Positions 5,088 to 63,405 of a DNA stretch of 64,000 nt are shown one piece after another; the stretch's first letter is position 1; every line of letters begins with the position of its first letter. Both the position numbers and the translations under genes were made by a program. This DNA comes from Leucoraja ocellata (taxonomy: Eukaryota), in NCBI GenBank assembly GCA_036785375.1, contig JAWMAR010000391.1, positions 868,001-932,000 on the forward strand, written 5' to 3'. The notes beneath the pieces were generated by a model. That model was not told the DNA's origin, did not search any database, and saw nothing but the letters and a program-made list of their open reading frames with translations.

Positions 5088-5270
5088 GACATAAAGTCCT
5101 GGAGTAAGTCAGTGAGTCAGGCAGCATCCTTGTTAAACATGGATAGTGATGTTTCAGGTCAGGACCCAAAGCGACACCTATCCATATTTTCCAGAGATAT
5201 TGCCTAACCCGCTGAGTTACTCCAGTACTTTGTGTCTTCTCTTGTAAACAGCACCTGCAGTTCCTTGTTT
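5088..5270. mobile_element. Degenerate fold-back Penelope-end derivative
   Basis: GACATAAAGTCCTGGAGTAAGTCAG...CTGAGTTACTCCAGTACTTTGTGTC inverted arms plus CTGCAGTTCC tail. Confidence 0.7.
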
Positions 5271-6051
5271 CAACATTCTAATTAGATTGTGTTTACAGAC
5301 AGTGACATTAGCAGAGCTTGGTTGCACTCCCTTGAGATGAATCACTTAATGCACATTGCTTAAATTCAAATCCCAAGGCAAAAGGATTACCTTAACCATT
5401 CAATTTTAATGTGTAATATGTGTTGATCTTTGAAATTTCAGAACTCAGACTTTAATATGAGATGGATTATGTTGGAGATAATAAATAAAATGAGATCACC
5501 TATCAAAACATTTTTTTATTCAAGTAATGAAAGAATTGCTCATAAAAAACTTGGATAATTGGAAGCTGAACAATAAACATATGCTATTATGTTTTGTTTA
5601 TTGCATTGTGGAAAATATTCACAGTTCGTTTTGCCAAACTAGTAAAGAACTTCCTTTTGTTCTTTAAGGTTAATGTTAATTATAGTATAATAATCGTTTT
5701 TGATAATGCAGGCAAACAAAATAATGGCTTCCTGAATCTAACTGTGTGCGGGACAACTTAATTTTTTTCTACATGGTTAAATAATAAAAATTCTAGCTGG
5801 AATGTTCATCCCCAGTGTTTGCATGGTTGCATAATTTATAAGTACAACAAATCATGTGAAATTTAATACAATCAAATAATAAAATATTTGTGAGAATTTT
5901 TTAGCATTATTGTTGAGTCTAACACCAGATTGCTCTTCTACATTTAATTTAGCAAATGAGTGATATGGTAACAGAGTTATTTAGTTACTGGAGTAGCAGC
6001 CTTAGGACTGGAGCATTTATTGTGAGTCTGGATGTTACCAAAGCAGCTATG

Positions 6052-6306
6052 ATCCATGCGGTGAGAACGGAGAGGTTGAGAAGGAGTTTCTTCCCAGAGG
6101 CAATTCGGACTGTAAACGTCTTTCTCACCAGGGACTAACTGTACAGAACGTTTTTCTTTCTATTATTTATTATGTAAAATAATATGTGTGTTATGATTAT
6201 GTCTATAATTTGTTTGGATGTTTTGTTGTTCCGCGAGCATTGCCACTTTCATTTCACTGCACATCTCGTATGTGTATGTGACAAATAAACTTGACTTGAC
6301 TTGACT
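6052..6306 (+). mobile_element. Rex1/Babar-like LINE 3' end
   Basis: RTERLRRSFFPEAIRTVN C-terminal motif; AATAAA followed by (CTTGA)n tail. A related degraded piece lies at about 43765-44300. Confidence 0.65.
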
Positions 6307-7004
6307 AATGACTGGCTTCAGTAACTAACTGCTGGATTGTCATAAAGTCACATCTAGATGATAAAAGTCCTTCAGGGAAGGACGTGTAATATACCATCCT
6401 TACCTGATCTGGCCTAAATATGACTGTGGCAATGTGCTTGACTCTTGACTGCTTCCTTAGTTTGGTCCAACTTGGGATGGGCAATGAATGCTGACATTAC
6501 AAGCATTGTAATGACTCAACAAAAAAAAATGTTGGTAGCCTGGACCCAACCACCAGAATATGAATATCAGGCCTAGTTAAGGTATCCCATTTACAGTTGT
6601 GGCAAGAAGGTTATAAGAGATGCTGTGGTATTTGTTTTCTAGAGGTAGATGGCAGCCCATTTATGGACTGCAACAAGATGATTAAATGTTATCTAGAATA
6701 CCCAAACAGCTGGTTTCAGTACCTAACTACTTGATTGTCATAAAGATACATCTGGATGATAAAGGTAACTGGCATAACTATTTAATTTTAAACTCTTCTC
6801 TGAGTCTGTTGAAGAATGTTTTTAGATCATGCATATGTCCAAGCAACTGCCTCAATTATGAACCAACAGAAAAAAAATTACATTCATCCTTCGTCAACTA
6901 CAGAGAACAACAGGATTTGTATTAAATTCAAAGGGTAGGCAGGACATACAGAATGACTTGATCAGATGGTTAAGTTATGTCATCTAAATGGAGAGAATAT
7001 CTAT

Positions 7005-7063
7005 GTTTAAGAAGGAACTGCAGATGCTGGAGAATCGAAGGTACACAAAAAAGCTGGAGAAAC
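7005..7063 (-). mobile_element. 59-bp Penelope terminal fragment with 14-bp duplication
   Basis: GAGAGAATATCTAT at 6991-7004 and 7064-7077. Confidence 0.8.
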
Positions 7064-8147
7064 GAGAGAATATCTATTCTCATGAATTGTCCCAAATAAT
7101 AACAGGGTAAGAATATTTATAGCCAATTATCTTGCAAAAGACGTTCCGATATGGAGTAAGGAAACACAGTTCTGAAGAAACTGAATCCAAATGTAAATGA
7201 TGGGGAACCAGGATTTATTAATTTTTAATAGAAGCATCAATGCCAAGGACAGACAGTGACAGCTTTACAAAGGACATGTTATAGCCAAAAACAGCAACAT
7301 TCTTCTCATAGATATCAACCAGCCAAGATTAACAACTAAAAATAGCCATGTATGATGCTTTGCTACTATATTATTTAATCTTGATTTTGTTTCAATATTT
7401 GTTTCAGATTCTGACCCACACAAAGAATAACCTGAAGTCAAGTAATGTTCACTAAAAAGAGGCAATGGACATTATAACAATCCAGTGTTTTATCATGTAT
7501 TATTAATGCAATTAGAAGAAATGTTAGTGGTAGTTCTGTTAAAACTAGTTAATGATTTGCTTCTGTTATAAAATGTTAGTTAGTTTAGTTAAAGCTTTGA
7601 GTTCTGGTATACCTGGTGATAATCTTGATCATAATTTAAGTTATACAGATGTGTCTGTGTGAAGTATCAACTACTACTATGTTCCCTCTTCAATCTAAAA
7701 TTTTTCAAAATCAGAAAATATAAAACGATGCTGCATTTTTATTCCACAATGCACAGGAGTGATATCAGTGCATCGCAGATGCTGGTATTTTAGAATACAT
7801 TGCCTTATAGAGACACATTCTGTTCTAGGTACCTACATGAGTGAATACCTATACACAAGTAGGTATTAGCGATCATATTTGGATCTGCAGTGTTCACTTC
7901 CTCACACTGTCCTGAAGCATTATGCATGTTCATTCCCTCAAAATAAGGGAATGGATTTCACACCAGTGGGCCACATGAGCGGCAAGAATGTGGGGTAAAA
8001 TTATGATTTGGTGCGTAGCCTCTGAGAATGTCAGATGAAGTTTTTTGCACAGTACATGTATTGTTCATATTTATTACTTGAATAAAGTCAATTTTGAAAT
8101 ATATTTAAAAAAATGTTCATTGCCAAATAACAATTGTTGGGAATAAA

Positions 8148-8345
8148 AGGCACAAAGTGCTGATGTAACTCAGCAGGTCGGGCAGCAATGCATCTCTGGA
8201 GTAACATGGATAGTGATGTTTCAGGTCGGGATCTTTCTTCAGACTGAGGCCACCTTGAGTCTGAAGAAGTGTCCCAACCTGAAATGACCCTCTGAATTAT
8301 ACTCCCACTTTGTATCTTTTTTTTTAGACTTGCAACTGCAGTTGT
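8148..8345. mobile_element. Degenerate fold-back Penelope-end derivative
   Basis: TTCTTCAGACT...AGTCTGAAGAA inverted cores and the family terminal motifs. Confidence 0.65.
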
Positions 8346-10743: not shown

Positions 10744-10886
10744 TGAGAATAGATTCAGAGGTCAAACATTTTGAAATTCTCAATCATTTGACTGTGAAGC
10801 GAATGTTAACACTGCCGAACTGCAACTTGTGCAGCTGTCCATGTTTAGTACAATTAATTCCGACAATCCAAGAAGTCAGAAGAGAG

Positions 10887-11040
10887 AAAGACACAAAATG
10901 CAGGAGTAACTCAGCGGATCAGGCAGCAACTCTGGAGAACATGGATTGGTGACATTTCGTGTCGGGAACCTTCTTCAGACTGAAGAAGGGTCATGACCCA
11001 AAACAACACCTATAAACCAGCATCTGCAGTTCCTTCCCAC
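10887..11040. mobile_element. Fold-back Penelope-end derivative with abutting inverted CTGAAGA cores
   Basis: CCTTCTTCAG-A-CTGAAGAAGG palindrome; CAGCATCTGCAGTTCC tail. Confidence 0.7.
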
Positions 11041-11972
11041 TTCCAAGGAAGCAAGATCTTTTTGAAATGTAAATCTTTCTGATGATTTTTCACAAATGTT
11101 CTTGGAGATTCTGTTAGAATAATTAAAATTGTTCATATGAAATAGATTTGCATTTAGCTTGCATTTTATAGCTTAGAAGAACTTTAAAAACCTATTGTTT
11201 ATCATACTATAAATTAGAAGTAGAATGGTTATATAGGTAAACACTGTAGCTGTATTGCATGCTACATATTTTCAGAAACATTAAGGTGCAGAATCCAGTC
11301 TAATATGCAATGAAGGGTTTATGACAACGATGTAGAATTTATAACAGTATACCTAGAGGGAAAAGTTGAATTTGCTGAGAAAGACCCAGGACAAAGAGAA
11401 ATAAGAGGTGACCTAAACTATTTTAAATTAAGAAAGAGATTGATAGAATCCTTGTCCAAGATGTAAACGGCCCTCCCTGTGCACAAATGCTAACTTCCTC
11501 GCACAGTGCTTCCAAAGTGTTGTTTTTTAGTTTTGTCTGAATTGGAAACATGGTTGATTTAATGGCTCTTCACTGATTCATTACTCATTCAATGAGCTGT
11601 AGACCTATGGAAGCCCAAAATTGAAATCCAATCTACACTGACAGTTGATTTTAGTTAGAATGGTGATGAAGTTGTTTTAATTAATATCACAGGCCTTGGG
11701 CTAAATCCAAAACCGCCAACCCTATATTCTGTGACACTTGGTTCCAGACAAAGGAAACAAAGGCCTGCATCCACTCTGTTGAACTTTGTAAGTTTTAATG
11801 AGATCATCTCTCGTTCTTCTAATTTCTGGAGAATTGAGGCTGAATTTATTCAATCTCATGAAGCAAACTCATTATCCTCGGAACCAATCTATTGAAACAT
11901 CTTGTCCATACTCACTATCCCTCAAGTAAAACCTTTTTTTGGTAAGAAGACCAAATCTTTACATTATCTTCC

Positions 11973-12160
11973 AGGTAGACAAAAATGCTGGAGAAACTCA
12001 GCGGGTGAGGCAGCATCTATGGAGCGAAGGAAATAGTCAACGTTTCGACCCGAAACGTTGCCTATTTCTTTCGCTCCATAGATGCTGCCTCACCCGCTGT
12101 GTTTCTCCAGCATTTTTGTCTACCTTTGATTTTCCAGCATCTACAGTTCCTTCTTAAACA
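11973..12160. mobile_element. Young palindromic Penelope-end derivative (75-bp arms plus 35-bp tail)
   Basis: Arms 11973-12047 and 12051-12125; flanking TACATTATCT/CTCCAGG duplication. Confidence 0.85.
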
Positions 12161-13172: not shown

Positions 13173-14036
13173 AACCACAAATTTCGGCCCACAAGGCCCC
13201 TATTAGCCGAGAAACCAGTCCCTTTTTGGACCAAAAGGCCATGCCAGGCCAGGAAAAGTCCAGAAAAAAGTGCCTTTCACTGAGATTTCACTCAGATTTT
13301 TTAAAGAGCCCCTTTGGCCCATCAGGCCTGTACTAGCCCAGGAGTCTCTTCGACCCAACAGTAAGAATATGGCATTCTTGCATCCAAAGACCAGGGCATA
13401 GAATCTAAAAGTTGGGACATTATGTTGCGACTTTACAAAGCACTGGCTTAATCACTCTTGGAGTGTTCTGTGCAGTTCTGGCTGCTTGAATGGATTGTGC
13501 TGGAGAGAGCGCAGAATCCAGTATGTTGCCTGGATGGGAGAACCTTGTTTATGGAAAGAGGTTGGATAGGCTGTGTGTGTTTTCCCCAGAACAAAAGAGG
13601 CCGAGGGAAGATCTGACAGTTGTATTTAAAATTATAAAAGGATGGTCTGAATCTATTTTTCCCTATTGTAGGGATATCAAGTTGACACACATTTAAGGGG
13701 GGGGGGGGGGGGAGCGGGGGGGAGGAATCTTAAAATGGACTTGAGGGGAACGTTTTTTTAGCACAGAAGTGGAATCTGTTTCACGGGGGGGAGGGGATGG
13801 TGGAGTCAGAAACATTCACTACATTTATGAGGCATGTAGCAAGACACATAAAGAAGCAAGGAATAGAAAGATGCAGTCCCAATGTAGACACATAAGTATT
13901 GATGGACTAAATGGTTGGCAGGACATTTAGAGCAGAATGGGCCATTTCTGTGCTATACCACTGCGACTTGAGTCTTGAAGCACATTGTGGCTTTAGTTTG
14001 ATAACACAGCTCACTGCTGCACATGTGTCTGTCAGT

Positions 14037-14064
14037 CTGAAGATGGGGTTCGGCCCGAAACGTT
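14037..14064 (+). ncRNA. Minimal hammerhead ribozyme motif upstream of the promoter
   Basis: CTGAAGA-T-GGG gttcgg CCC-GAAA-CGTT within Penelope-like fragment 14030-14130. Confidence 0.5.
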
Positions 14065-14459
14065 GCCTATTTCCTTCGCTCCATAGATGCTACTGCACCC
14101 GCTGAGTTTCTCCAGCTTTTTTGTGCACCTTTACTGCTGCACGTGATAGCTGGGCTACATCGAGGACTCTCTGGGAGCGACCTGCTCCCGTTGCCCCAGC
14201 CCAACTCCACTCCCTCCCTTGCCCCAGCCCAACTCCACTCCCTCCCTTCCCCCAACCAACTCTTCCTCCCCCATCCTATAAACAACACTCCTTCTGTCAT
14301 TGCAGCAAATCCTTCCTTTAACCAACCCTCATCCCTCCCTCAGACGACCCGTGCTACCACTCCTGCATACAACCACCCTTCCCTGCCTGAACATAACCAA
14401 CCCACCCTCCCTGTAAACATCCCTCCCTCCAAACAACCCTCCCACCCGTCCCCAGCCCC

Positions 14460-15190: not shown

Positions 15191-18100
15191 TTTGCCGGTG
15201 ATAAGAGGTGCTAACGCTACTAATGTTTTATGATATTAAGTGTAAGTACTTCTTTCATAGGCAAACAATATTTTATTTTCCGTGTGGTGGGACATCGATT
15301 TTACTGGTGTTTTTGTTTGTTTGGGTTGATACACGTTTATGGGGTCCGTTGAAGGAATGGATAGATTCTTTATGTGCTTTAGTTAAAAACCATTGCCATC
15401 CTCGAATTTATGTGAAACATGAGAGATTGCCTACATTTTTTTCTCTCGCATTATTCGTAAAACGATATGTTTTCTTTAGCCCCCCCCCCCCCCCCATACA
15501 GTGTCAAAGGGCGTATAAACGAAAATGCGCCCGAGAGCATTCATTGGAGTAGAAATTAATACGGTCAAACTTATTAACTTCTTGTAACGATGATGCCCTT
15601 GTATAGAAAAACGGGATTCATCTGGAAAATATTAACAGGTCTGCACTTCTAATTACAACAAATGAGTTATTTACAGGCAAAATATGTCCATTAGTTTTGT
15701 TCTTCAAATGTTTGATATTGTTAAAAATGAATAACTACTATCTGATATTTTTAGGGATTTTAACTTGATTTTCAGGGGTCTAAATATATGAAAATGTTTA
15801 GACCAAATCTCGTGATGCACTTCGAAGTAATATGGTTTTCAGAAAATATTGCCACCCTACAATCCAAAAAATGCAACGTTGTGTACAGATCCTATCTTCC
15901 TCCTGCACCAATCTCTTGAAATCCCCAAAAATCTGTATTATTTCAGTTTTTGCCTTGTGTTCATCTGCCAATTTTCAATTGTTGATGATGAATATTCAGG
16001 CTCAAAGCCGTGTAATTCCCTTCTGAATCCATCCATCTTTCTTCCTTTTGTTGAAATTTATTCTGAGCACCTGTTTTAATATCACTCTGTGAAGCTCGGC
16101 ATAAATTTTAGCTGGTTATGCCCATGGTGTACCTTGCTATGTCAATAAGAAGCCCGTTAATAATATGTGTAGGAAAGAACTGCAGATGGTTTATACTAGT
16201 TTAAATGGAAGATGGACACAAAATGCTTGAGTAACTCAGCAGGGCAGGCAGCATCTTTGGAGAGAAGGTATGGGTTAATAATAATTGAAAAGTGTACAAC
16301 CCACTAGGATTTGCTTTTCCATATTTCTGTCATCCAACAGTTTTAAATGATGTAAGAAATTCCACTCTTATTAGTTATTTAGTATAATACAAGTCTGAAT
16401 GTGATACATTTCATCATCAACACCACTCATTTTCGAAGTCCTTATGTCTATGTTCAATATCCAATGAGCTTGAATCCAAGTTCCATGAAAACCTGCTCTA
16501 TGATTAATGTTTTAACATTTTATTTTTGGTGTGTACCGGAGTTTGCTTTTGAAGGAAGTCCGGCTACAATCTGGCTTTGTATGGATTTGATTGCAAATGC
16601 TGTTCATTTGAACTTGATATAAGTTTTTTCCAATTTTAGACTAAGCTGCCAGGTGCAGCAGTTTGCAAGACGTGAAATGGATGGTTCTTGGTCTAGTCAG
16701 CTCATCTTGCTTGAATATGCACCTAGTGGCTGATGATAGTAGAGCATTACTAAGTTTTTGTGTTATTCCTGGCCTACCTTGTTCTTCCAAAGTGAGCTGT
16801 TTTAGTAAGTACAGGATTTAAACTTTCATATTGGATTTGAATAAAAGCATTGTTCATCAATCCATTTTTTTAAAAGCTGGCATAAATCATTATGCCCTGG
16901 CACTACTTGTGTACTCCTCTCTGAAATGCAGCTTGTTATTTTCCTCACAGCAGCTTTAGGAAATGTGGGTGATGGGGCTGATGGGAATGCATTGAGATCA
17001 AGTGTAGAATTGATGGGCTGAATAGCATCCATCTGTGTCATGAGAAAAAGTCTTGGGTCACAAAGTTTAGATTTTTCTGCTGTCAAATTATTCTGGAGTA
17101 TTATTTTAATGAATGTGAAAATTAACATTGTGTAAAATATGTAATTAAATTATGGGATGGAAGGCATTTGGCTGGAGGAATAGATGGTAGCATGAAGTGG
17201 TGTACAAGGAATTTGGGCATCATCATTAGCAAGAATTGGCATTCAACCAGCTTTTTTGGTTGATTTGGACAATGGGACTGTGTTAGAATGTCTTGAGTTT
17301 GCAGATAATTATCATTACATGCAAATGCAAAAAAGGATCTGAAAAAAGTAGGCCTGTTGACATAAAGATGGCAAATGCTATTTGATGCATAAAGCTATGG
17401 GCGTAACCACCGAACACAGATAATTCTAAAGCAATGGCTTGGTCTGGATCGTTGTATATATGTTAATGGAGTTTAGATATCTTGTTTAGTTAATGTACTA
17501 GTTTGGAAAAAGAGTCTTAATAATTCCAGAATCAAAGTTTTTGACGAGATGGCAGACATTGGGACTTTGTCCCATGAGCCGAATGAAGGATGATTTGTTT
17601 TAGTGCATAATATTCAGATGTTTGCATAATTTAGATCTAGATAATTTCATTTTACATTATCCATAGTACAATAATAAGGGATTTTAAAGAAAATAGTTAG
17701 CAAAATGCATGAAGCAGATTTAAATAAGGAAAGAAAGAAACATTTTAAGAACTGGGGGGGGGGGGGAGTGAGATGCTCATTAGTTGATGTAATCATATAT
17801 TAAAGTTCAAAATGTGGTAAGAAGTTCATTTGATTGTGTGGATCAGATAAATGGAATATTTATAATCTTCTGTCTGAAATACCCATGGTTCTTGCCCATT
17901 GTTCAAACTCCAGACATTTTTTCCCCCCAGTGCTGCAGTGATGTTGTGGAACCGTGTGTGGGAATTGGAAGATTCTGGAGCTTATAAAAGTCCATTGATG
18001 GTGGGTGTGCACCTGCAGGCTTGTTTGTTTGTCATGGCAAAGTGGTTGCCAAATATGCAGAGTACAAAATGTAAAGGAAATTTAATAGATTGCTGGTTGA

Positions 18101-22932: not shown

Positions 22933-23065
22933 ATGTGTAGGAAGGAACTGCAGATGCTGGTTTAAACCGAAGATGGACACAAAAGGCTGGAGTAACTCAG
23001 TGGGACAGGCAGCATCTCTGGAGAGAATGAATAGGTGATGTTTCGGCTCGTGACCCTTCTTCGGA
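22933..23065 (-). mobile_element. Penelope terminal fragment
   Basis: GGAAGGAACTGCAGATGCTGG...GTTTCGG...CCCTTCTTC. Similar pieces lie at 16167-16275, 33835-33963, 34688-34822, 38510-38590, 40795-40870, 61320-61710 and 62395-62620. Confidence 0.75.
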
Positions 23066-39451: not shown

Positions 39452-41290
<1,839 letters not shown>

Positions 41291-42410: not shown

Positions 42411-43215
42411 TAAGAAAGAACTGCAGATGCTGAAAAAATCGAAGGTAGACCGAAATGTTGGCCATGGAGGAGGCCCAGGACAGAAAGGTCGGATTCGGAA
42501 TGGGAGGGGGAGTTGAAGTGCTGAGCCACCGGGAGATCAGGTTGGTTATTACGAACTGAGCGGAGGTGTTGGGCGAAGCGATCGGCAAGCAACAAGTGTA
42601 GCATTGCAACCGCAGGAAATGCTACACTTGTCGCTTTACCGCCCCCTCGACTCCATCCAAGGACCCAAGCAATCTTTTCAGGTGAGGCAGAAGTTCACCT
42701 GCACCTTCTCCAACCTCATCTATTGCATCCGCTGTTCCAGGTGACAACTGCTCTACATTGGTGAGACCAAGCGCAGGCTTGGAGATCGCTTCGCCTAATA
42801 CCTTCGCTCAGTTCGCAATAACTAACCTGATCTCCCGGTGGCTCAGCACTTCAACTCCCCCTCCCATTCCGAATCAGACCTTTCTGTCCGGGGCCTGCTC
42901 CATGGCCAGAGTGAGTCCCACTGCAAATTGGAGGAGCAGCACCTCATATTTTGCTTGGGTAGTTTACACCCCAGCGGTATGAACATTGACTTCTCCAATT
43001 TCAGGTAGTCCTTGCTTTCTCCCTCATTCCCCTTCCCTTCCCAGCTCTCCCACTGGTCTTACTTTCTCTGTCTACATTCTATCTTTTTCCCGTGCCCCCC
43101 CCCCCCCCCCCCCCACATCAGTCTGAAGAAGGGACTCGACCCGAAACGTCGCCTATTCCCTCACTCCATAGATGCTGCCTCACACGCTGAGTTTCTCCAG
43201 CATTTTTGTCTACCT
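42411..43215 (+). mobile_element. Penelope-like retroelement fragment (GIY-YIG endonuclease) with inverted 5' piece
   Basis: CNRRKCYTC Cys linker, then NLIYCIRCSR*QLLYIGETKRRLGDRF and VAQHFN with internal stops; flanked by TTAAACA/CCTGACATGTT duplication. Confidence 0.9.
43123..43150 (+). ncRNA. Minimal hammerhead ribozyme motif (Penelope-associated)
   Basis: CTGAAGA-A-GGG actcga CCC-GAAA-CGTC. Confidence 0.65.
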
Positions 43216-44400
43216 TTAAACCCTGACATGTTCATCCAAGCACATAAATATTCTATTACCAAGAATAAATACTTGCACTTCTATAATGAAGGAGCACATA
43301 CTGTAAATAGTGTGAGTTTGCATAGCTTTGATTGCCAAGGGATTTGGCTGTCCTATGGTGTGATTTGCACACAGCTGGTATGCTGGTACAGGAAGCAAAC
43401 AATATTATAGTTCATTGCCGGTATAATTTAATACAAAATAAGGAGATGGTTCTTATGTTGTATAGGGTTTTGGTAAAGTCATATCTGTAGGACCGTGTAC
43501 AATATGGAACTCCTTAATGAGAGACAGGTGTAAATGCATTGAAGCAATTCAGGGCAGATTTACTGGACCCATTCCTGGAACAAATAGGTTGAACTATAAG
43601 GAAAGGTTGGATAAGATGGGCATTTTCCCGAAAAAATATAGATGTGAGAAAGAATTTGATTGAAGGCGCAAGATACTGAGAAATCTTGACAGAGTGGATA
43701 TAAAGATAATATTTCTTCCTGTGGAAGAATCGAGTAGAGGTAATTGTCTTGAAACAGCATATTGACTGGCAGCATGGCCTGGTTCAGCAACTCGAATGAC
43801 CAGGAATGTAAGAAGATTACTAAATGTAGTGGACGTCACTTTGTCCTTCATGGGTGCTGACTTCTCCACCATCGAAGGGATCTGTACAAGGCAGTGCTTC
43901 AGAAAGGCAGCAAGCATCGTCAAGGGCCCTCCCCACTGTGGCCATGCTCTCATTTAACTCCTGACTGAAATGAGAGCATGGCCAGGGTGGGAAGTGCCCT
44001 TGATGATGCTAGCCGCTTTACTGAAGCATCTTTCAGATGGCAGGAGTGAAATGCCTGAGAACTATCATGTCCAGGCTTGGGACCACCTTCGTCGCAACAA
44101 CCATCAGTCTCTTGAACACTATGAACACCAACTAAACTACAAACTGGCATTGCAGTTTTGTTTGGCATCAAAATTATTATTTTTTAATTTATTGAACTTT
44201 TATTGTTTATTGTGTTACCTATGAGTACTGTGATTACAGACCTGTTATACTGTTGCAAGTAACAATTTCATTGTTCCATTGTCAGTACATGTGATAGTTA
44301 AACACCAGTTGCAACCAATTTCACAGTGCAGACAGCAAATATTCAGGAAATGTACATGCTTAAAGTTTCCTGCACAATAATAAATGGCAGTATTTGACCT

Positions 44401-45147: not shown

Positions 45148-46280
45148 AAGTACAGATGCTGGTTTACAAAAAAAGACACAAAGCATTGGAGTAACTCAAC
45201 GGGTCAGGTAGCATCTCTGGAGAACATGGATAGGTGACATTTGGGACTGGGACCCTCCTCCAGACAGATTGTGGTGGTGGGGGAGAAAGCTGAAAGACAG
45301 GAGGGGCAGGACACTACCAGGTGTGTGATAGGTGGATACAGGTGAGATGAGCTTTGATAGGCAGATGTTCAGAAAGCCAGAAAAGTGAGAGTTAAGGTTA
45401 GAAGAGTTGTAATTTGTGAAGCCAGAGGAATATAGGTGGAAGGGGAGGGGCAATGGGCTGTGGCAATGGAGGAGCCCCTCAACAGAAAGATCAGTAAGGG
45501 GATTTAAAATGGTTAGCAACCGGGAGATCCAGTCGGCTTTGCCGGACCCAGCGCAGGTGTTCGATGAAACGGTCGCCGAGTCTATGCTAGGTCTCGCCAA
45601 TTTAAAAGAATACAGTAGTTGACGTTAGAGGAGGTGTACGTGAACCTCTGTTTCATCTGGAAGGACTGCTGGAGTCCCTGGATGTATGTGAGGGAGGAGG
45701 TATATGGACTGGTATTACACCTGTGGTTTCAGGGGATAGTGCATGGGGGAAGGGGTTGTTTGGGTGGGAAAGGATGAACGAACTAAGGAGTTGCAGAGGG
45801 AGTGGTCTCTGGAATGCAGAAAGGAACGAATGGAAGATATGACTGGTGGTGGGGGTCACATTGAAAGTTGTGGAAACATCAAAGAATGATGTGTTGGATG
45901 CGAAGGCTGCTGGGGGTGAAAGGTGAGGGCCTGGAGAACTACCATTGTTCTGTCTGCGGGGAGGTGTGAGAGCAGGACTCACTGGGACACATAGGAGGTG
46001 TCCATTTATGAGGGGGAAGAGGGGAAAGCATGATTACTAGGGAAAGAGAGTATTTTGGATGTCCTACAATGGAAAAGCTCATCTTGGGAGATGATGCGAT
46101 GGAGAAACTAAGAGTTGGGGATACTGTCTTTGCAAGAGACAGGGTGGGAGGAGGTGCATTCCAGATGACTGGGAGTCAGTGGGTTTGGAGTCGACTTCAA
46201 TCAATAGCCTGTTCCCCATGATGGAGACAAAGAGATCAAGAAAGAGGAGAGGCATCGGATGGCAGATATTCTGTTCGGTG
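45148..46280 (-). mobile_element. Older Penelope-like element fragment
   Basis: Same terminal motif (CAGATGCTGG...GAGTAACTCA) and degraded endonuclease-like sequence on the minus strand. Confidence 0.7.
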
Positions 46281-50148: not shown

Positions 50149-53100
50149 ATGCAAAGAAGCAGGCAGATGATGACGTCACCAAGTCCATTGGGTCCATCAG
50201 AAAGCAAGGTCCTTCCTTTGAATGTTCAGGTTGTGGCTCAACATATGCAGTCAGTCAAACAGCAGCAGAAGACTATCCAGAATATTCCTGCAAGTCCACA
50301 TAATGACCGCTCAAGGCCACGTTATCATCAAATCTTGCCTAAACCACCTTCAACCAACACACTTACTCTTACCTCTCCAACAAGGGTACTTTTGGCCAGT
50401 AGCAGTCCAATTAAAACTGTTGTTTCTGGAGCATCCCATCCAAGCTCTTTGAATATGGTGAAGATGACTACAATATCTCTTCCACCCAGTACAGGTGCAT
50501 CTCCTAAACCTACATCCTCAGCGAGTAACAGTGGTGGAGTAACAGAAAAAACAAAATCTACGTCAACTGTGAAAGTTGGCGCAACTTCTCTTTCTGCTGC
50601 TGGGTCCAGATCAAGTAGTGCCACAACTACACCTACTGCGGAGGTCATCAAATACGAACAGGAAGCGATATCAAATGATGAAAAGCAGATTCAGTGCCAA
50701 GATCATTCAAGAAACCTGAATGATCCCAGAAGAGCTTCTGGTTCTCCGTCCGGACAGAGAGGTAATAGTGAAAGTACCACAAAAGTGAAGACGCCAAATG
50801 GGAGAATATCTACTGAGAAGGCAGCTAAAGTCTGTAATGGTCAGAAAACTGAAGGAAAACGGTCAAAAAATGATGGCAAGTTTTTACACAATGAAAATCT
50901 GGCCATTTCATTGTCTGGAAATAATCAAAATTCTCTTGTTGTTTCCTCTGCTTTAATGATGAGCACCAGCATTAGTTCAAAATCCAATGCCGATACTGCC
51001 AGATTTCATAAAGATAATGGGATGTGCCCAAAAAGCCCAAGGAAACGGTCTCCCTCAAATTCGTTATCTGAGCCACTGGTGCCACCTGTGAAGAAAGCTC
51101 TGGTTTTGGAACCCATTTTCGATAGTGCAGAACATCAGATCAGTCCTGGAACTGCAGTAGTGACACCTCCGAAGCTCTCTGCAGGTGTACTGGTAAAAAA
51201 TGAGAAAACCCCAACATCTCAGGTTCATACACCTAGTAAAATTACTGTTAAACTAAATACAACAGGTATAACTCGTATATTAGCCAACCCTTCATCCGAT
51301 ATCCAAGTGGTCACCTTGGGTTGTGTTCAGACGGATACAGAACAAATGTCTATCTTTCAGGAAAACGAGACCGCAGACTTGGAAAGGGGCTTATTTTCTG
51401 TGCAGGGACACAACACAAGTACAAAGCTGTTTGCCGATCATACTGATATCCAGCATATCAAAAGGAAACACCAATGTTTTTTTATGAATACAGAAAGGCA
51501 GGCAGCTGTAAATGCTAATACAATAGGGAATTCAGGGACCATTGATTTTCGAGAATCTGCATGGGAGCCAGCACAATGTAATGGGTTGGATCAGCAGCCT
51601 TATGATCAACAGTTGCATGCTCAAAATCAGATGCAAGTTTCTAATTCGGTTCAGCTGCAAGGACACCATCCAGTGCAGTTGTCACACCCGTTACCTCTGC
51701 AGGATAATTTGATGGATCTCACTGCTCCAAGTTCACAACCCAGTGACAACTACTTTCAATTTGACGATGATCTTACACAGGACAGTATTGTAGAAGAACT
51801 TGTGTTATTTGAAGAGCAAATGTCCTTGAATGTTGATTATGAATCTGCGTTGGGAATACCTGCTCATAGTCATTCTGCAGGAAGTCAGAATACACTGTTA
51901 TCTCATCAAATGGGGCAATTCTATCATCCCATCCATAGCAGTGGCACTCCAACCCCAACGCCAACACCAACTCTGACACCCAATCCGACACCTACATCAG
52001 AAATGATTGGCTCCCAAACATGTTCCAGTCCTAGCTCCAGAATGGCACAATCCACACCTGTTGACAGTGCTCTCGGTAGTAGCAGGCATACGCCAATTGG
52101 TACACCTCATTCAAACTGCAGCAGTAGTGTACCTCCGAGCCCTGTTGAGTGCCGGAACCCTTTTGCTTTTACTCCCATAAGCTCCAGCCTGGCCTACCAG
52201 GATGCTAGTGTAATTTCCAGTAGTCCTGTTAAACCGATGCAACGGCCCATGGCTACTCATCCAGACAAAACAAAAATTGAATGGATGAATAATGGATACA
52301 ACACTGGAATGAGCAATCCAGCAATGTTGACCAGTGGTGTTGGTATTCTTCCTAGTTACCAGAAACTTACAGAGGATCACTTTAGAAAACCACATGCCTT
52401 TGCAGTTCCTGGACAGACAATGCAATCATATCATAATACTGTGCAGTTACAGTCCAGACATCATGATGCTCAAATGGGCCGTGTTACTCCTGTTTCACCT
52501 ATACCACACCAGGCAGCGTCAATGGCTAATGGCAATAAGCAGGAGGGCTTTGCAGTGCCAGCGCCTCTTGACAACAAAGGAATCCATTCACTGATCAATA
52601 ATTTTAGGTGCCGCAGTGTCAGTCCTGCTGTTCGTCAACGTAATCTTAGCGGAAGCACAGTTGGTCCAGTGATTAATCTGCCGAGAACAAGTTTGGCAAC
52701 TTTTGGAAGCCCAATGACACCCGAGGTTCACAACACATTTGTTAACAATATTTCTGATAATAGTGCCAACAGCATAGCTCAAAGAAGCCAATCTGTCCCT
52801 TTGTCTGTTATGATGCAGAATACTTTTCCATCTTACCAGAAGCCAACTAACACGAAAAAGATAACAAATGTGTTGTTAAGTAAACTTGATTCTGAAGGTG
52901 ACGATGCAATGAGAGGCTTAGGAATAAATAATTTGCCCTCCAATTATACAGCACGAATGAATCTTACTCAGATATTAGAGACAACATCTAATTTTGCCAA
53001 CCAGCAACCAATGATTAATCCAGGCTCTTCTGTCTTTGAATTCCAAAAGCCCAGTTATGTAACAAAACACATCAATAATGATCAGATGGGTTATATTTCT

Positions 53101-53472
53101 GAGGATAATCAAGCACAAACAGAAGCCAGAGTGCAATCATTGGATTTCAACAATACAGTCAAAGACTTTCTGGCTGAAGAGAGCCTACAGTCTAACCAGC
53201 AAGTGGTTGGTCAAGTATCATCAGATCTAAATGTTGCCTCTGATTTCTCCAGTGATCTCAGGTTACCTACTGAGCTTTCAGGCAGCATAAACGATCTGAG
53301 CACTTTAGACACAAATTTGCTGTTTGACCCTAGTAAACAACAGGGGCACGATGTTGATACTACACTGGAGGAACTAAATAATGATGCAGTATTTCAGCAA
53401 ATCTGTAACGAGTCTTCAGGTTTTGACTGGATGGAAAGTAAAGATCATCCTACAGTTGAAATGTTGGGTTAA
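50149..53472 (+). CDS. RFX7: RFX7 terminal coding exon 9 (1107 codons, Ser/Pro/Thr-rich C-terminal region)
   Basis: TTTTAG acceptor directly before ATG; long ORF with DDDLTQDSIVEELVL, TPTP repeat, RCRSVSPAV, RSQSVP and the C-terminus SKDHPTVEMLG. Confidence 0.97.
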   Translation: MQRSRQMMTSPSPLGPSESKVLPLNVQVVAQHMQSVKQQQKTIQNIPASPHNDRSRPRYHQILPKPPSTNTLTLTSPTRVLLASSSPIKTVVSGASHPSSLNMVKMTTISLPPSTGASPKPTSSASNSGGVTEKTKSTSTVKVGATSLSAAGSRSSSATTTPTAEVIKYEQEAISNDEKQIQCQDHSRNLNDPRRASGSPSGQRGNSESTTKVKTPNGRISTEKAAKVCNGQKTEGKRSKNDGKFLHNENLAISLSGNNQNSLVVSSALMMSTSISSKSNADTARFHKDNGMCPKSPRKRSPSNSLSEPLVPPVKKALVLEPIFDSAEHQISPGTAVVTPPKLSAGVLVKNEKTPTSQVHTPSKITVKLNTTGITRILANPSSDIQVVTLGCVQTDTEQMSIFQENETADLERGLFSVQGHNTSTKLFADHTDIQHIKRKHQCFFMNTERQAAVNANTIGNSGTIDFRESAWEPAQCNGLDQQPYDQQLHAQNQMQVSNSVQLQGHHPVQLSHPLPLQDNLMDLTAPSSQPSDNYFQFDDDLTQDSIVEELVLFEEQMSLNVDYESALGIPAHSHSAGSQNTLLSHQMGQFYHPIHSSGTPTPTPTPTLTPNPTPTSEMIGSQTCSSPSSRMAQSTPVDSALGSSRHTPIGTPHSNCSSSVPPSPVECRNPFAFTPISSSLAYQDASVISSSPVKPMQRPMATHPDKTKIEWMNNGYNTGMSNPAMLTSGVGILPSYQKLTEDHFRKPHAFAVPGQTMQSYHNTVQLQSRHHDAQMGRVTPVSPIPHQAASMANGNKQEGFAVPAPLDNKGIHSLINNFRCRSVSPAVRQRNLSGSTVGPVINLPRTSLATFGSPMTPEVHNTFVNNISDNSANSIAQRSQSVPLSVMMQNTFPSYQKPTNTKKITNVLLSKLDSEGDDAMRGLGINNLPSNYTARMNLTQILETTSNFANQQPMINPGSSVFEFQKPSYVTKHINNDQMGYISEDNQAQTEARVQSLDFNNTVKDFLAEESLQSNQQVVGQVSSDLNVASDFSSDLRLPTELSGSINDLSTLDTNLLFDPSKQQGHDVDTTLEELNNDAVFQQICNESSGFDWMESKDHPTVEMLG

Positions 53473-53827
53473 ATCAAAGAGTACTGTTAAATATATAGCA
53501 CACATTTCATTTTCTGATTCATAATATTTGACCTAATAGATGTGCCTGCCTTCAGAAAAACATTTGTTCATAAACAAGTGTATTCCAGGAGAAAAAACAT
53601 AACTGTTCTCCATACATATGTTCTATTAATCGTGTGTCCATAATTTCATTTTAGATGCCATCCTGTATGGTTCACTGTAAATACATCTGTGTGGATGTGT
53701 GTGTGCCATCCATTTATGGAATTGTGAGTAAGAAAGAACTGCAGATGCTGGTTTAAATCGAAGGTAGACACAAAATGCTGGAGTAACTCAGCGGGTGACT
53801 CGGCATCTCTGGAGAGAAGGAATGGGC

Positions 53828-53855
53828 GACGTTTCGGGTTGAAACCCTTCTTCAG
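53828..53855 (-). ncRNA. Minimal hammerhead ribozyme motif (Penelope-associated)
   Basis: Reverse complement reads CTGAAGA-A-GGGTT tc AACCC-GAAA-CGTC. Confidence 0.65.
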
Positions 53856-54473
53856 ACTGATGTCCGGGGAGGGGGTGGGACAAAGATAGAATGTAGGCGG
53901 AGACAGTAAGACTAGTGGGAGAACTGGGAAGGGGAAGGGGATGTAGAGAGAAAGCTAGGGCTATCTGAAGTTAGAGAAGTCAATGTTCATACCGCTGGGG
54001 TGTAAACTACCCAAGCGAAATATGAGGTGCTGTTCCTCCAATTTGTGCTGGGCCTCACTCTGACAATGGAGGAGGTCCAGGACAGAAAGGTCAGATGTTC
54101 CAGGTGTCAACTTCTCTACATCGCCGAAACCAACCGTAGGCTTGGCGATCGTTTCACTGAACACCTCCGCTCAGTCCGCCTTAACCTCCCTGATCTCCCG
54201 GTGGCTCAGCACTTCAACTCCCCCTCCCATTCCCAATCTGACCTTTCTGTCCTGGGCCTCCATTGTCAGAGTGATGCCCAGCGCAAATTGGAAGAACAGC
54301 ACCTCATATTTTGCTTGGGTAGTTTACACCCCAGCTGTAGGAACATTGACATCTCTAACTTCAGATAGCCCTTGCTTTCCCTCTCCATCCCCTTCCCCTT
54401 CCCAGTTCTCCCACTGGTCTTACTGTCTCCGTCTACATTCTATCTTTGTCCCGCCCCCTCCCCTGACAGAAGT

Positions 54474-54501
54474 CTGAAGAAGGGTCTTGACCCGAAATGT
54501 C
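54474..54501 (+). ncRNA. Minimal hammerhead ribozyme motif in the putative 3' UTR
   Basis: CTGAAGA-A-GGGTC tt GACCC-GAAA-TGTC; the helix III palindrome is mutated to ATGT. Confidence 0.55.
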
Positions 54502-57500
54502 GCCCATTCCCTCTCTCCAGAGATGCTGCCTCATCCGCTGAGTTATTCCAGCATTTTGAGTCTAACAAAGGAATTAGGTGCATTTACAAGCTCGGCTGCT
54601 GTCAGTAGGTAGATTTTAGCCCAGCGTCTTTTAAGATGCAACTTCAGGTCTCAAAATGCTTCATTGTGACTTTTCTTTTACGAGTTTAACTATTAATACG
54701 ATTTAATAAGTTCTATTGAATTTAACAAGCAACAATATTTATACTGTTGTGTTTCAGCCACGTTTTCTTATTTTTGTTTGCTCTGTATTTCTTATTCGAA
54801 ACATATAGAGGACTTGGCATTATGTACAATACTAAAAAACCTTTATAGTGATATCAGTGGGAACACTGTAATGCAATCCTTATATTACTCAAAACGTTAT
54901 CTTGCAATTCACCCAATGTTGGATGCCTGAAACTGTCCATAAAGGGTGAAATAATACAAGTCATTGAGATACCACAACAGTAATGAAGAATTCTATTGCC
55001 AACCATATACTCTTATTGTCGGCAGTGTGATGCTTGCCTTGTAACAAGGAGGAATTCAACAGTCTGAATTTGGTAAAGCAAACAAATTAGTATATCATGC
55101 TAGTTGCTTTCCCACTTGAGACGCTGTTATGATACAACCTGACCATGGTATATTTCTCTGAGGTGTTGTAACAGTTATGTTAATCTATTTCAGAAGATTA
55201 ACAACAGTGTTAAGCAGCACATGCAAGAATTAAACACAAATCAACTTGGGTGGTTTAAATCCTTTGTATCATTTGTAAAAGAGTATAGACTGTTCAATAA
55301 AATCAGTTGCTAGCTCTTAATGGTAAAAACATTCATGGTGCTTTATAAAAATTAGTTCATTACATAATTTACCTTTTTCTAGACTGATTGAGAGGATTCC
55401 CCAAATAAATTAAGTTCTATGAAAATATCATAAATGTCTCCATCCCAAGTATGGGACTTGTCTCCTGACAAACACTTTTCTTGTTGTCCACAACTCAAGA
55501 AATGGGTGAAACGAAAAGCTGCCCTCAAGGGAGTATTTTAAATTTGATTCATATATAGTCCAATAGGATTTGATTTTTAATCAGGCCATGGTAAAACTTA
55601 GTTGCCTTTTTATTTATTCCCTTGCATATGGAGCTGCATTTTAAAGACTACACGCCTTCCTATGCTGTTTAATGGATAAATGTGATATGCAAAATATGAT
55701 CCTTAAACAACCCGAGTTGATTCCGCATTCCATGATTCTGTCTTGGCTATTCTCAAGGCTGATAACCTTCGATAGTCTTTTACAACTTATCAACTTATCA
55801 AAACTGAGAAGTGAGATGAGACTTTTGAGTTACCCATGTGATTGAACAAAAAGAATCCAGGCAGAATGGTTGGCCTGTTTTATTAAAATGTATGCAATTC
55901 CTAGAAGAACTTGCTGTCTGAAAAGTGGTCTGAATTTTAGAAGCAACAAGGATAAAAACATGAAATTAAGAAAACAGTTTAAAGTGTGAAGATTGCTCCT
56001 TTCGTGAGCAGGCACAATGGGCCGAATGGCCTCAGCTGATGTAAAATGTAATGTTTTTATCATGTGAGAATTAAATTAATTTCAGCAACCCAAAACCAGC
56101 AATTCAAAAATTTGATTGTCAATTATCTCTAACTCCTGTTAGAAAACTGAGCATTTTTCAGTATTCTCCTTTCCAACAAAACTGAAAACTACGTTTGCAG
56201 CACAATTAAAATAACTTGTTGAGTGACGTGAATCCAACATTTGTTTAATTTTTAAAGTTGAAAGCCACATCATAAATTTAGTTCACATGCATAATTTTAG
56301 AAATCTTTGACCACAAGAGGGTGCTCCATTTTGTTGCAACTGAAGCCTTCTAAGATAGTTATCCCATTGAATTAGAAACAGTCATATTTCTAAAATCTGT
56401 AATGACAAATATAGCATAAACTGAATTTTCTCCTTATAGTTTGATTGTTCAGAATAATCATAATGATTATGGTTTGACACTTGATTATGTCCAGTCCCTC
56501 TCTGGAATTTATTTGTTAATTTTGCTATCATGAAATTTTGTTCATTGATTTCCATATTTTTTTTTAATAATGGGATTGTTTGTGAAGATGTACATGCTAG
56601 CTCATTCTTCATTTAGATTAACCCTTCTCAAACACATCAATATTTATTCCAGTTGCAGAGTAAATTACTGATCATGAAGCGAACACCCATCCAGTGGATT
56701 TTAAAACTCAATTTTAAAAGCTGACCAACTAATTTACAGGAATAGATGTACACTATTGTAGTCGAGGTGTAGACTTATTCCACATATTCTCATTGCCTTT
56801 TGTGACACTGAAGACATGTTTTTTTATCCAATCATATTTCAAGAACAAATTAATTTCCTAAATTCTTTCTTGATCTCTGTATTTGATTAAAATCTTAAAT
56901 GAACAAAATATCCCTTTAACCAGTTGTAGGTAATGTAAATAGTTACGTTACTGGACCAGCTGCCAAGAGTTTCTAACCATTGATCCAGAAAGTTCGAATC
57001 TCACCACAGCAGCTGGGAAATTTACTTTCAGATTAGTTTTATTAATTGAATTACAACTGGAATACTTAGCTGGATTGTCATTAGACACCTGCTTTGTTCA
57101 CTAATGTCCATTCATGAACATTGCCACCCTTACCTCGTCTCAGCTACCTACGACTCCTGATGCATCAACGTGATTGATTCTTATTTGCCACCTCAGGAAC
57201 AATTAGAGATAGTAATAAATACAGCCAATTTCAGTAGCATTTATTTAGTTGGTGAATAATTTAAAGTTAGTGATTAAAGTTGTCCCATGAACAAATAGAA
57301 AAAAGTTAGTAATAAAATTTTAGAAAAAATGAAAACTTAAATTAAATTATTTGTTTCCTATTACCATGCAATGTCTTTGCCTCCTCCATATCCAGATTAT
57401 CATCTCCAAAAAAAATCTACGCATCACATTTGCATGCTTTCTCTATCAAAAATAAAGCTGAAAGCTGTACCTGGTTTTAGATCTAGTCTGGTTCTCAAGA

Positions 57501-60090: not shown

Positions 60091-60096
60091 AATAAA
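60091..60096 (+). terminator. Candidate distal polyadenylation signal AATAAA of RFX7
   Basis: AATAAA at the end of a repeat-free U-rich block (58700-60110) that resembles a distal 3' UTR. Earlier AATAAA hexamers also exist. Confidence 0.4.
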
Positions 60097-60341
60097 AAAA
60101 TTTTGTACCACATTCCAATCTGGAAAGCGTGTCATCATGTGCCTTCTGCTCTGGCAGGCAACCAGCAATCATTACCCTCATGGGTAAGTCCAGGAGAAAC
60201 ATTACATGGATTTGGATATGTACTTAATCACCAAGTGCCTTGGATAATTACAATAAGAAGCCTGTTCAACATGGAAGATAATAAATTGCTATACTTTAAA
60301 ACAAAAGGAACTGGTCCAGAACTACCATTCCAATCACAAAA

Positions 60342-60635
60342 TTTAGTTTAGTTTAGAAATACAGCATGGAAACAGACCCTTCAGCCCACAGAGTTGATGC
60401 CTACCTGCGATCCCCAAACACTAGTTCTATCCTGCAGACTAGTGACACAGTCCGGAAGCCAATTAACCTACACACCTGCTGTCTTTGGAATGTGGGAGGA
60501 AACAGGAGCACCCAGAGAAAACCCACGCAGTCACAGAGAGAATGTACAAACTCCCTACAGGCAGCATGTGTAGTCAGAATCAAGCCCGGGTCTCTAGCGC
60601 TGTCTGTGGAAGCAACTCTACCGCTGTGCCGTCAC
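60342..60635 (-). mobile_element. tRNA-derived V-SINE (HE1-like)
   Basis: Reverse complement of the 9102-9420 family: (TTTAG)n, GTGGGAGGAAACAGGAGCACCC. Confidence 0.75.
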
Positions 60636-62893
60636 TTGTTTTAGACAGGTCTCATGGAATCCAGAATGATCCAGCCAATTGGATATAAAATTGGCTCGGA
60701 GGAAATAATCAGAGCATAGCAGTGGAGGGTTGTTTTACCTATTGGAGGCCTGTTACTAGTGATGTGCCATAGGGACTGGTGCTGAGTCCATTGATATTTA
60801 TCACCTTTATTCAGGATTTGGATGACAACGGTGTAAGTTTTCAGGTGACACCAACAGTTTGTGGTTATAGTGGGCAGTGAGAGGGTTATCTAAGATTACA
60901 ATAGGGTCTAGATAACCGGTAGCGAGTCAAAGAATGGTGGATGGAATGTAACTTTGGATAAATGTGAGATGTTGCACTTTGGTAAATTAAACAAGGGCAG
61001 GACTTGCTCAGACAATTAGATGTATACATCGATAGGAAATGTTTAGAGGGATATGAGCCAAACGTAGGCAGATGGAATAGGTCAGCTAGACAACTTTGTC
61101 GGCATGAACGTGGTGAACCAAAGGGCCTGTTCCTATGGCGCTATAATAACGACACATCAATGTTATGTGCAGTCTAAAAGTAATGTTGGGAGTCTTCTGG
61201 ACTTTTAAGGTGAATACTAACTTAGCAGCTACTTAACCAATCATGTTTTTATGCGTTCCATAGTTTCTTGCGCACCTTTGGATGAAAGATTGTTTAAATA
61301 CACCATTGTGATATTAAATGGTAGAGGAGGAGTGAAATGTAAGGCTGGAGGGAAGGATATGGGTGGAAGGGACAGAGGAAGTTATCTTTCATCTCCGAGT
61401 TCTTAATTTCCCTTTTATCTTGCCTACTTTATCCATTTTGTCTGCTTTTCACCTCTAGCCTTTGTCACTCACCCCACCAATCTGCCAATGACTCTTCACT
61501 TGCGTGTATCCATTTGCTAGACGTGGCCCCACCCTTGGCTCCCTTTTCCAGCTTTCTCACACTTGCTCTGTATGTCAGAAGAAGGGTCCTGACCTGAAAC
61601 ATAATCTGCCCATTCCCTCGGATACCTCCTGACCTTTTGAGTTCCTCCGACGCTTTTTGAGTTGAATGAATGTCTCATCCAGTTGATTTACTCCAGCCTT
61701 TTGTGTCTATCTTCAGCTAATTTTAATGTTGATTCAGATGTTGTCTTGGGTCAGCTTGACAAATCTTCCCACAAATTCAAACGTGCCTGTTTTGGGGAAC
61801 ATTTTGGCACAATAGCATGAAATGGAATAAAACAATAAATTGCTATGCCTTACAAAAATGAACTTTCTGATGAAGCTTAATGTGATAGCCCATGCAAATT
61901 GAATACTCTGCTTTTTGTAATAGGGTAGGGATATTGTTTCATGCAATGCATTCATGCTGTGTTCAGTAGCTTGGACAATGAACTTAAGATCACGCTATAA
62001 TTACTGCAAATGGGTGTGACACGAGGCCAATTACATACTCATGCAACTGGGGGGTAATTGTAGACTTCTCTGTACATTGGTATTAGTGCCTTGGGTAATT
62101 ACAGTTCACAAAGATGTTTCTAACATGGAAAATCACAAACCTAAATCTCATTATCTTGGTAATATGTAATTTCCCCACACTGAAGGTTAAAAAATATGCA
62201 CAATTACGAACATATCTCAGTTTGCTCTCAGATCGATTTGGAAGTAAATTTGATTCACATTTAGTCTTGTCAGTTAAACAGTCCTTTTGTGGTCAAGCAG
62301 ACTTGTGCTTTCTAAACATTTCAATCTGAGCACTGGGTGTAGAGCTTAAAGTCCTTTGAGAAAGCAAATTAAAAGTGAGTTGAAGTATTGAGCAAAACAA
62401 TGTATTAGAGTAAATAAGCAGGTCAGGCTGTATCTGTGGAGGGAATGGACAGATAGTGTTTCAGAACAGCAACCTTTAAACAGATGGAGCAAAGGACAGG
62501 TAGTTCTGTCTCCCGAAAAGGTCGTATGTCCTTTACCTTCACAGATACTGCCTGACTTGCTGAGTTACCCCAGCACTTTATGATATGCTCAAGATTTAAG
62601 CATCTTCAGTTCCTTGTGTCCCTGAGACGAAGTCGTCATGAGTTACCAGCTCACATTACAGGTATTTAGGCAGCACCTCAGTTCCTTGGCTGCAGAATCA
62701 CCCAAGTAAGTAGAAAAAGAGATTTATAACAGAATCTATCCTACACTAATTTTAGGGATAATACGTTGTTTTCCTGTTTCTTAAATGGGCAGAGAAATCT
62801 CTTTACAGCCATCCTTCTCGGGTAGAATTTACTATTCTAATTTCTTCCAACCGCGCCACACCCCTCGCCATCAATAGGTGAACACTTCTCAAT

Positions 62894-63405
62894 AAAAATA
62901 CAGTGTTGGAGTAATTCAATGGGTCAGGCAGCATCTCTGGAAAACATGGATAAGTGACGCTTCGGGCCGGGATCCTTCTTCAGACTGAATGTAGGAAGTG
63001 AAGGATGGAGAAAGATGGATAAAGAGGTAGGGGCGTGACAAAACCAGGCAATTGATAGGCGGATGGGATTTTTGATAAAGGCCAGAGATGAAAGACTAAA
63101 GTAAGGATAGAAGTGTAAAATGTTAAGCCAGAGGAAGGAATACAAGGGGATGGGTGGGAAAGGGAGCAATTGTCCAGCCATCTGGCTTTCACCTCCCCCC
63201 CCCCCCCCCCCCCCCCCACCTCTCACTTGCTAAACCCGGTTTCCGCTCCATCCTCTCTTCATATCTTCTCCTCTTGCCCCCTTACAAACAGTCTGAAGAA
63301 GGGTCCCGGCCCAAAAGTCATGTTCTCCAGAGGTGCTGCATGACTCGCTGAGTTGCTCTGGCACTTTGTGTCTGTTTTTGTAAACCAGCTTCTGCAGTTC
63401 CTTGT
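62894..63405. mobile_element. Inverted Penelope-end pair with perfect 16-bp duplication
   Basis: GTGAACACTTCTCAAT at 62878-62893 and 63406-63421. Confidence 0.8.

Follow-up and report, generated by a model that had tools for sequence, protein, structure and literature searches.

The window analysed here, a 64,000-nucleotide stretch of the Leucoraja ocellata genome (assembly GCA_036785375.1, contig JAWMAR010000391.1, positions 868,001 to 932,000), contains about 19 insertions that are almost certainly copies of the hammerhead-bearing end, the pseudo-long terminal repeat (pLTR), of a Neptune-type Penelope-like element (PLE). As individual insertions they are dead and unremarkable remnants. The key finding comes from the points at which copies of the family start and stop: there is no excess of ends or of scars at the site where the ribozyme would cut, which suggests that cut RNA is rarely the direct template of copies, and the whole is probably best explained if copies are mostly made from RNA that the ribozyme has left uncut. 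Throughout, C3 of the hammerhead core is position 0 and the predicted cut is the bond +27/+28.

The initial annotation had described about 20 related fragments sharing one motif. A profile built from 13 window copies was used in an nhmmer search of the window, of three shuffles and of the reversed window, and gave 28 matches to the pLTR-end family in the window (~19 insertion events by hand tally) and none in the three shuffled windows or the reversed one. The family is therefore real, and the five cores named as intact, at 14037+, 34695+, 43123+, 53855-53828(-) and 54474+, do retain the catalytic bases (C3-A9, G12-A14, A15.1, U16.1 and H17), but two of them depart from the pattern described: that at 14037 terminates in GAAACGTT, a GUU triplet, with a G-G atop helix II, and that at 54474 carries GAAATGTC (U15.2.G16.2). 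The reported change of G12 to A was found at all three positions (10980+, 33870+ and 63293+); G12 is the general base of the hammerhead (PMC6155905). The motif had also been placed just 3' of GIY-YIG endonuclease remnants, which holds for three of the ~19 events (42643-43002+, 45497-46249- and 53967-54362 in a doublet, by tblastn with a natural full frame as query), while elsewhere the copies are solo stubs of ~100 bp or head-to-head doublets, the forms that most window copies take. Pfam searches of the window open reading frames (ORFs) and remnants gave no PLE domain match, though tblastn with the full frame found the remnants, and Rfam gave no hammerhead match at E<=1.

The motif fits a minimal type I hammerhead, with the core CUGANGA / GAAA / UH, an unpaired base before helix II, G10.1-C11.1 and a palindromic 15.2-16.2. 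Four pairs make up helix II and the palindrome ACGU makes up helix III; helix I consists of two pairs (U.G or U-A, then G-C) followed by A-C and C-U mismatches and two or three possible pairs. None of the six consensus rows departs from the core or from either CpG, and the sites that vary among them (loop II, 11.4 (A/G), 17 (C/U) and 1.1 (A/G)) are all fold-compatible. In dead copies G12 is lost in 30 of 102, as CpG decay would lead one to expect. Two other identities were considered and rejected: an older family with a longer helix I, a stingray-type motif, since the CUGAUGA matches (89 in all) belonged, in the 15 loci inspected, to variants of the present family, and a hepatitis delta virus-like ribozyme cutting before G(-2), for which inspection found at most five P1 pairs where seven are needed and no P3.

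That such hammerheads lie in PLE pLTRs was already known, as the initial annotation recognised. The minimal type I hammerheads of metazoan PLEs (Cervera and De la Pena 2014, PMC4209133) have the same core, pre-helix-II base, G10.1-C11.1, palindromic 15.2-16.2 and pLTR position, and also occur as thousands of solo copies and opposite-strand pairs. The helices differ in length, helix II having 4 bp and helix I 2 bp here against 7-8 and 4-5 bp in the schistosome ribozymes, although helix I of Drosophila virilis is also 2 bp, and the ~74,000 exact cores counted below compare with at most 9,000 there. Cartilaginous fish are absent from the portions of that text examined and from its supplement file 2; supplement file 1 may differ.

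The claim of a very high copy number was borne out. Exact GUC cores number 48,006 in the genome, against none for a control pattern, and exact GUU cores 25,986, giving ~74,000 together, and a 30-mer of the youngest subfamily has 71,882 exact copies. In a looser count over 494 kb of sequence, most of it random, 102 copies covered the core and 27 of these had it intact, which extrapolates to ~190,000. A caveat that must be applied to all genome copy counts is that they are upper bounds, with haploid numbers down to perhaps half, because the assembly contains a second haplotype: the window locus has a counterpart 97-98% identical (L028, G000:C603), paired duplicate loci lie at G000:C1 0.2-2.9 Mb, and the assembly is incompletely purged.

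Source-type copies have a 3,946-bp unit with a single open frame of 1,233 codons encoding reverse transcriptase (RT) and GIY-YIG, and head-to-tail 3,946-bp units were 100% identical. In one such frame RVT_1 was matched at E 1.6e-6 and GIY-YIG at E 0.013, and in another search at 5e-7 and 0.0045, in each case below the Pfam curated cut-offs. The linker ahead of the endonuclease is C-X4-C-X2-C (CGRSRCNTC at residue 1100), which falls within the CX2-5CxxC pattern that marks the Neptune clade and is common also to Nematis (PMC8557442). To judge from its sequence the element is a recently active endonuclease-bearing (EN+) PLE, Neptune-type by its linker. The partial tandems, inverted truncated pLTRs and one-end tails (30-40 bp) of EN+ PLE insertions (PMC8557442, PMC3846280) are all present, as are target duplications of ~8-16 bp, but the dominant product here is the ~100-bp stub. 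Two tandem arrays of 66-bp units at one further locus (L039:6556-6900 and 9353-9620) begin from GAAAC (~+20) of an older subfamily and lack the core.

The ends of young copies were mapped in 100 consecutive copies, yielding 108 rows and 89 unique arms. Their 3' ends gather at +90-100 and +121-136, that is about +94 or +130. Of the 5' ends, 41 lie at -6..+3 with a mode at -2, 11 at +4..+12, four at +26..+30, three at other points and 30 beyond -40. Genome-wide, 3,995 copies start at -2, 2,428 at -3, 193 at +28 and 44 at +30, counts that come from short end-specific patterns plus sampling of loci and that must be read with the differing chance pass rates of those patterns (~0.56, 0.56, 0.18 and 0.20 respectively) and their differing CpG content. 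When 30 loci with +28 ends were inspected, most were fold-backs or microhomology deletions and only six rows (four events) were plain host-flanked ends, which puts +28 level with +30.

Run-off at the cut site was accordingly rejected as a source of copy ends, the +28 excess being accounted for by microhomology deletions and fold-backs; the +26 control, made up mostly of 1-nt T insertions, is of little use. A ligation or jump scar at the cut site was ruled out by the insertion counts, 45 at the cut bond (24 of them T slippage) and 25 at a control bond. Among the first 50 of 811 short doublets, counted by hand, 21 centre on the helix III palindrome, six on the TA 3 nt downstream and four on the cut site, and a tail is found on one arm only in all eight long doublets with both ends in view. 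The expectation of cleavage after GUC has not fared well on this evidence, as the youngest subfamily would be cut after GUU and there is no genomic footprint at the predicted site.

The pile at -2 falls both on the outermost pair of helix I and on TCAGTC, a sequence resembling the consensus of the transcription initiator (Inr). Drosophila Penelope has its promoter inside the pLTR (PMC2377424). Long-unit copies behave differently from stubs. None of 25 passes through the upstream pLTR, in 23 insertions, stops at -6..+3, against 41 of 89 young arms (Fisher p = 3e-6), the passes having been counted by hand and 11 of them coming from loci chosen for long frames (9 of the 23 insertions), a bias that tells against the comparison. 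Excluded from the counts were L342 (no match at 90%), L077, L080 and L372 (upstream pLTR not reached) and duplicate haplotype loci.

Since no long-unit pass stops there, the -2 pile is unlikely to be a fixed pause of RT and more likely to be the 5' end of one class of RNA, and two classes of template are suggested, RNAs with a 5' end at about -2 and the seamless templates behind long copies. The converse, that RT is blocked past the ribozyme by protein on a pyrimidine tract and CAG acceptor-like site or by a G-rich cDNA structure, is improbable. It would fit the C-rich tract ending in CAG directly 5' of -1 and the spread of ends over -6..+9, many with microhomology or added bases. However, besides the absence of stops in long-unit passes, 10 of 51 short tandem copies (described below) restart at -6..+3 and in some of them both passes end there. 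Nor is splicing to host exons supported as a source of the -2 ends, because no direct end among 32 is at -1, and in 14 of 32 cases the target duplication adjoins or overlaps G(-2).

The mechanism that would account for these observations has four steps, of which the first, second and fourth are quite likely. In the first, the protein would bind the element RNA at the ORF start, immediately 3' of the pLTR, and reverse transcription would begin internally at +94 or +130; an internal start was demonstrated for the green anole Poseidon element PAc (Frangieh et al. 2024, PMC11167929). In the second, most template RNAs would begin at about -2, where transcription probably starts within the pLTR, and RT would run off after ~100 or 130 nt to leave a dead stub or a head-to-head doublet. 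The fourth holds that the dispersed stubs would be inactive cargo decaying at CpGs. The third step, for which confidence falls somewhat below even, concerns longer and more-than-unit copies, which would require a template that passes without a seam from the end of the ORF into a pLTR followed by the ORF start. Such a template would most likely be a unit-length RNA cut at both pLTRs by a protein-assisted dimeric hammerhead and then closed or jumped end to end, protein-assisted dimeric cleavage and closure having been put forward as a model for these ribozymes (PMC4209133).

The resemblance to PAc (PMC11167929) is close in several respects. In that element too, reverse transcription starts internally at two sites, separated by 30-40 nt and both downstream of the ribozyme, and it likewise requires the RNA of the ORF start and gives no reads ending at the cut site. 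It differs in that the linker here is of Neptune type, the ORF starts at ~+164, outside the ribozyme, and the start sites are at +94 and +130, and the 5' pile at -2 and the short tandems have no counterpart in the portions of that paper examined.

These short tandems, or mini-tandems, form the majority of insertions that carry the ORF start. In a sample made up of the loci of roughly the first 100 of 300 exact ORF-start matches, tallied by hand, 76 events comprised 51 short tandems, 21 long units and four others. The units end at +186..+299 in 49 of the 51; the restart lies at -6..+3 in 10 events and precisely at +28 in one (L347). Seven arrays with at least two junctions each reuse a single junction, mostly with 0-1 nt of microhomology. 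Between events the junctions differ, haplotype duplicates aside, and there is no multi-locus family with one common unit. Because each has its own junction, 91-100% identity to the live element and, where checked, a target duplication, the mini-tandems look like one-off births rather than established families: they look like one-step births of retrozyme-like arrays during reverse transcription, with later expansion by unequal crossover possible. Their reach to +186..+299 fits, by analogy, the need of the anole element for RNA downstream of its start sites. In the L347 mini-tandem (1393-1610), the sole case of a restart precisely at the predicted cut site, an additional A precedes that restart. 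An extra A or AA is frequent at junctions (L340, L346, L347, L357, L200, L318 and L338) and possibly reflects oligo-adenylated RNA 3' ends or non-templated additions by RT.

Six arrays (L184, L195, L201, L329, L345 and L359, but not L204) consist of non-coding tandem units each with a type I hammerhead. In this they resemble the non-LTR retrozymes (PMC7229834; Li, Clavereau, Pollet 2026, 10.64898/2026.07.22.740005), which are pLTR-derived tandem units with the same type of ribozyme; the units here measure 190-470 bp, with two longer. The difference is that arrays here have their own junctions and appear as one-off births. In the 2026 preprint one chondrichthyan was sampled and later expansion by unequal crossover was favoured, as far as the portions examined go. 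A partial search of the literature found nothing on hammerheads of cartilaginous-fish PLEs, on the -2 pile or on mini-tandems of this kind; file 1 of PMC4209133 or the tables of the preprint may list the family.

A more far-reaching proposal, offered tentatively and on balance doubtful, is that the hammerhead would act as a switch between abortive and productive copying. RT would be able to start only at a pLTR with the ORF start behind it, so that uncut transcripts would give only ~100-bp stubs, and cleavage at both pLTRs would give a seamless unit-length circle from which all long and more-than-unit copies derive, in line with the 0 of 25 against 41 of 89 stops. RT would also roll round small pLTR fragments and produce retrozyme-like arrays in a single step, so that retrozymes would be born from a live Penelope element.

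A number of observations weigh against the four-step mechanism given above. Helix I is limited to 2 bp, the fold of the hammerhead has an energy of -4.5 kcal/mol against a predicted minimum of -8.0, and the cofolded dimer does not take the hammerhead fold. GUU, the triplet of the youngest subfamily in place of GUC, is a poorer substrate for cleavage. Covariation in helix II had been proposed as a check, and compensatory covariation is absent in 20 copies, where helix II shows one double change in 120 cells (reached by 238 of 500 shuffles), helix changes are one-sided U-A/U.G only and the covariation score is reached by 198 of 500 shuffles, low divergence leaving the comparison little power. 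Downstream stretches outside the ribozyme are as constant between subfamilies as the core, so that the constancy of the motif is weak evidence of selection on catalysis. One array (L204-L207, G000:C13:10.639 Mb) holds, within a single target duplication, four 204-bp units (+21..+225) that lack the core, and another (L186) jumps to +226/227 from three different points; these two show that RT can roll or jump on pLTR RNA fragments without hammerhead cleavage. As to the RNA end at -2, no pile of read starts or ends was seen there, at +28 or anywhere among the top matches listed (a further 709 are weaker) in three RNA runs from related organisms, whose libraries are ill-suited to the purpose, although loose ends at -3/-2 stand among those top matches. 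By hand count, 42 of 100 rows have a G ahead of G(-2) where ~30 are expected, a weak cap signature, and no constant extra G is found beside the target duplication.

Several of these points are shared by an alternative that is rather unlikely, namely that in this lineage the hammerhead is a vestige. Read-through transcripts of existing head-to-tail arrays, or RT jumps between RNA ends, would then be the source of long and tandem copies, and the motif would be kept by its overlap with the promoter and the protein-binding region. Such an account would draw on the lack of a cut-site footprint, the 2-bp helix I and GUU triplet, the array without a core repeated four times and the natural multi-unit arrays (L071/L072 and L079), and also on the overlap of the motif with the Inr-like TCAGTC and with an ACGT akin to the downstream promoter element of Penelope (PMC2377424) and the observation that ribozyme mutants of the anole element insert in vitro all the same (PMC11167929). 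Two findings stand in its way. Subfamilies diverged by up to ~15% from their consensus retain every core base and two CpGs, while dead copies lose G12 at the rate given above, and only two of nine long insertions have at least three pLTRs, which means that arrays would need renewal. Copying mostly from uncut RNA, with the ribozyme possibly supplying the templates of long copies, is preferred.

The individual window copies show the range of products. Head-to-head doublets lie at 5081..5242 (junction in helix II, 15-bp target duplication), 8143..8288 (old, helices II and III decayed), 10885..11013 (centred on CTTCAG-N-CTGAAG, the + arm at 10980 with G12 changed to A and the - arm with a broken helix II pair), 11972..12160 (folded back within helix II/III, with a tail confined to the + arm and one mismatch in its 16-bp target duplication), 62397..62583 (old, cores decayed) and 62890..63420 (- arm with A14 changed to G at 62983, + arm with G12 changed to A and a deletion at 63293). 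Solo stubs on the + strand are found at 14031..14133 (young subfamily, intact core 14037-14064 with the GUU triplet, 10-bp target duplication), 33865..33966 (G12 changed to A by CpG decay), 34689..34823 (with tail, intact GUC core 34695-34722, on the sense strand of a host intron), 38509..38596 (core rearranged or deleted, 9-bp target duplication) and 61571..61715 (one or more old decayed stubs). Those on the - strand are at 16209..16276 (beginning ~2 nt beyond the predicted cut site, at +30, 10-bp target duplication), 22941..23065 (with tail, core broken by U4 to C), 27797..27896 (G5 to A, 14-bp target duplication with one mismatch) and 40788..40877 (old and decayed). Longer remnants are a 5'-truncated element at 42459..43218 (+), with a short inverted piece, the broken GIY-YIG remnant (42643-43002), the 3' untranslated region (UTR) and the intact core 43123-43150, and an older truncated element at 45168..46249 (-), with linker and GIY-YIG remnants and a decayed core.

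The remaining doublet, at 53727..54568, bears the cores 53855-53828(-) and 54474-54501(+) and a GIY-YIG remnant (54090-54362). It begins ~255 nt past a host stop codon (53472) and ends before the first AATAAA (55296), likely within a 3' UTR, and in a contig from a run guessed to be RNA its end was joined to unique downstream sequence. The host frame at 50149..53472 (+) is a last exon of 1,107 codons whose top Atlas match is an RFX cluster (0.95, with a low recognition value), and RFX DNA-binding exons lie near 30960, 39500 and 41290, so that the window likely covers introns and the 3' UTR of a gene which we take to be RFX7-like. The absence of read depth over the host exon results from filtering. 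Being an inverted repeat, the doublet would fold into a long hairpin of double-stranded RNA, which might be subject to A-to-I editing or nuclear retention. Nothing suggests its co-option.

It is very improbable that the ~100-bp stubs are a self-propagating ribozyme short interspersed element (SINE) or retrozyme family, or co-opted host regulators, for instance in this RFX7-like 3' UTR. The uniform size, target duplications and huge number of the stubs are in favour, and one sense-strand core does lie in the likely 3' UTR. Yet the stubs bear the diagnostic bases of autonomous subfamilies, vary at their 5' ends, decay at CpG sites and lack the +186..+299 stretch of nearly all re-copied mini templates. 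The core in the UTR carries a mutation at 15.2, and pairing with the inverted arm of its own doublet would be expected. Other features of the window are Tc1/mariner-type transposase remnants at 20931-21908 (HTH_Tnp_Tc3_2, DDE_3), a minisatellite at 12776-13154 with 5.5 copies of a ~70-bp unit, and a GC-rich stretch at 14001-16000 (51%), probably the host promoter region, at the edge of which the young stub at 14031 is placed.

The role of Penelope hammerheads in vivo is disputed, activity being low in vitro, assisted by protein in the anole element and dispensable for insertion in vitro. Tens of thousands of near-identical copies of one young family provide a statistical record of where RT starts and stops, and this record of ends makes the role of the motif testable, in that it defines two template classes and tells which exact RNA ends and circles to seek. 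For the origin proposed for animal retrozymes, the mini-tandems would supply direct intermediates.

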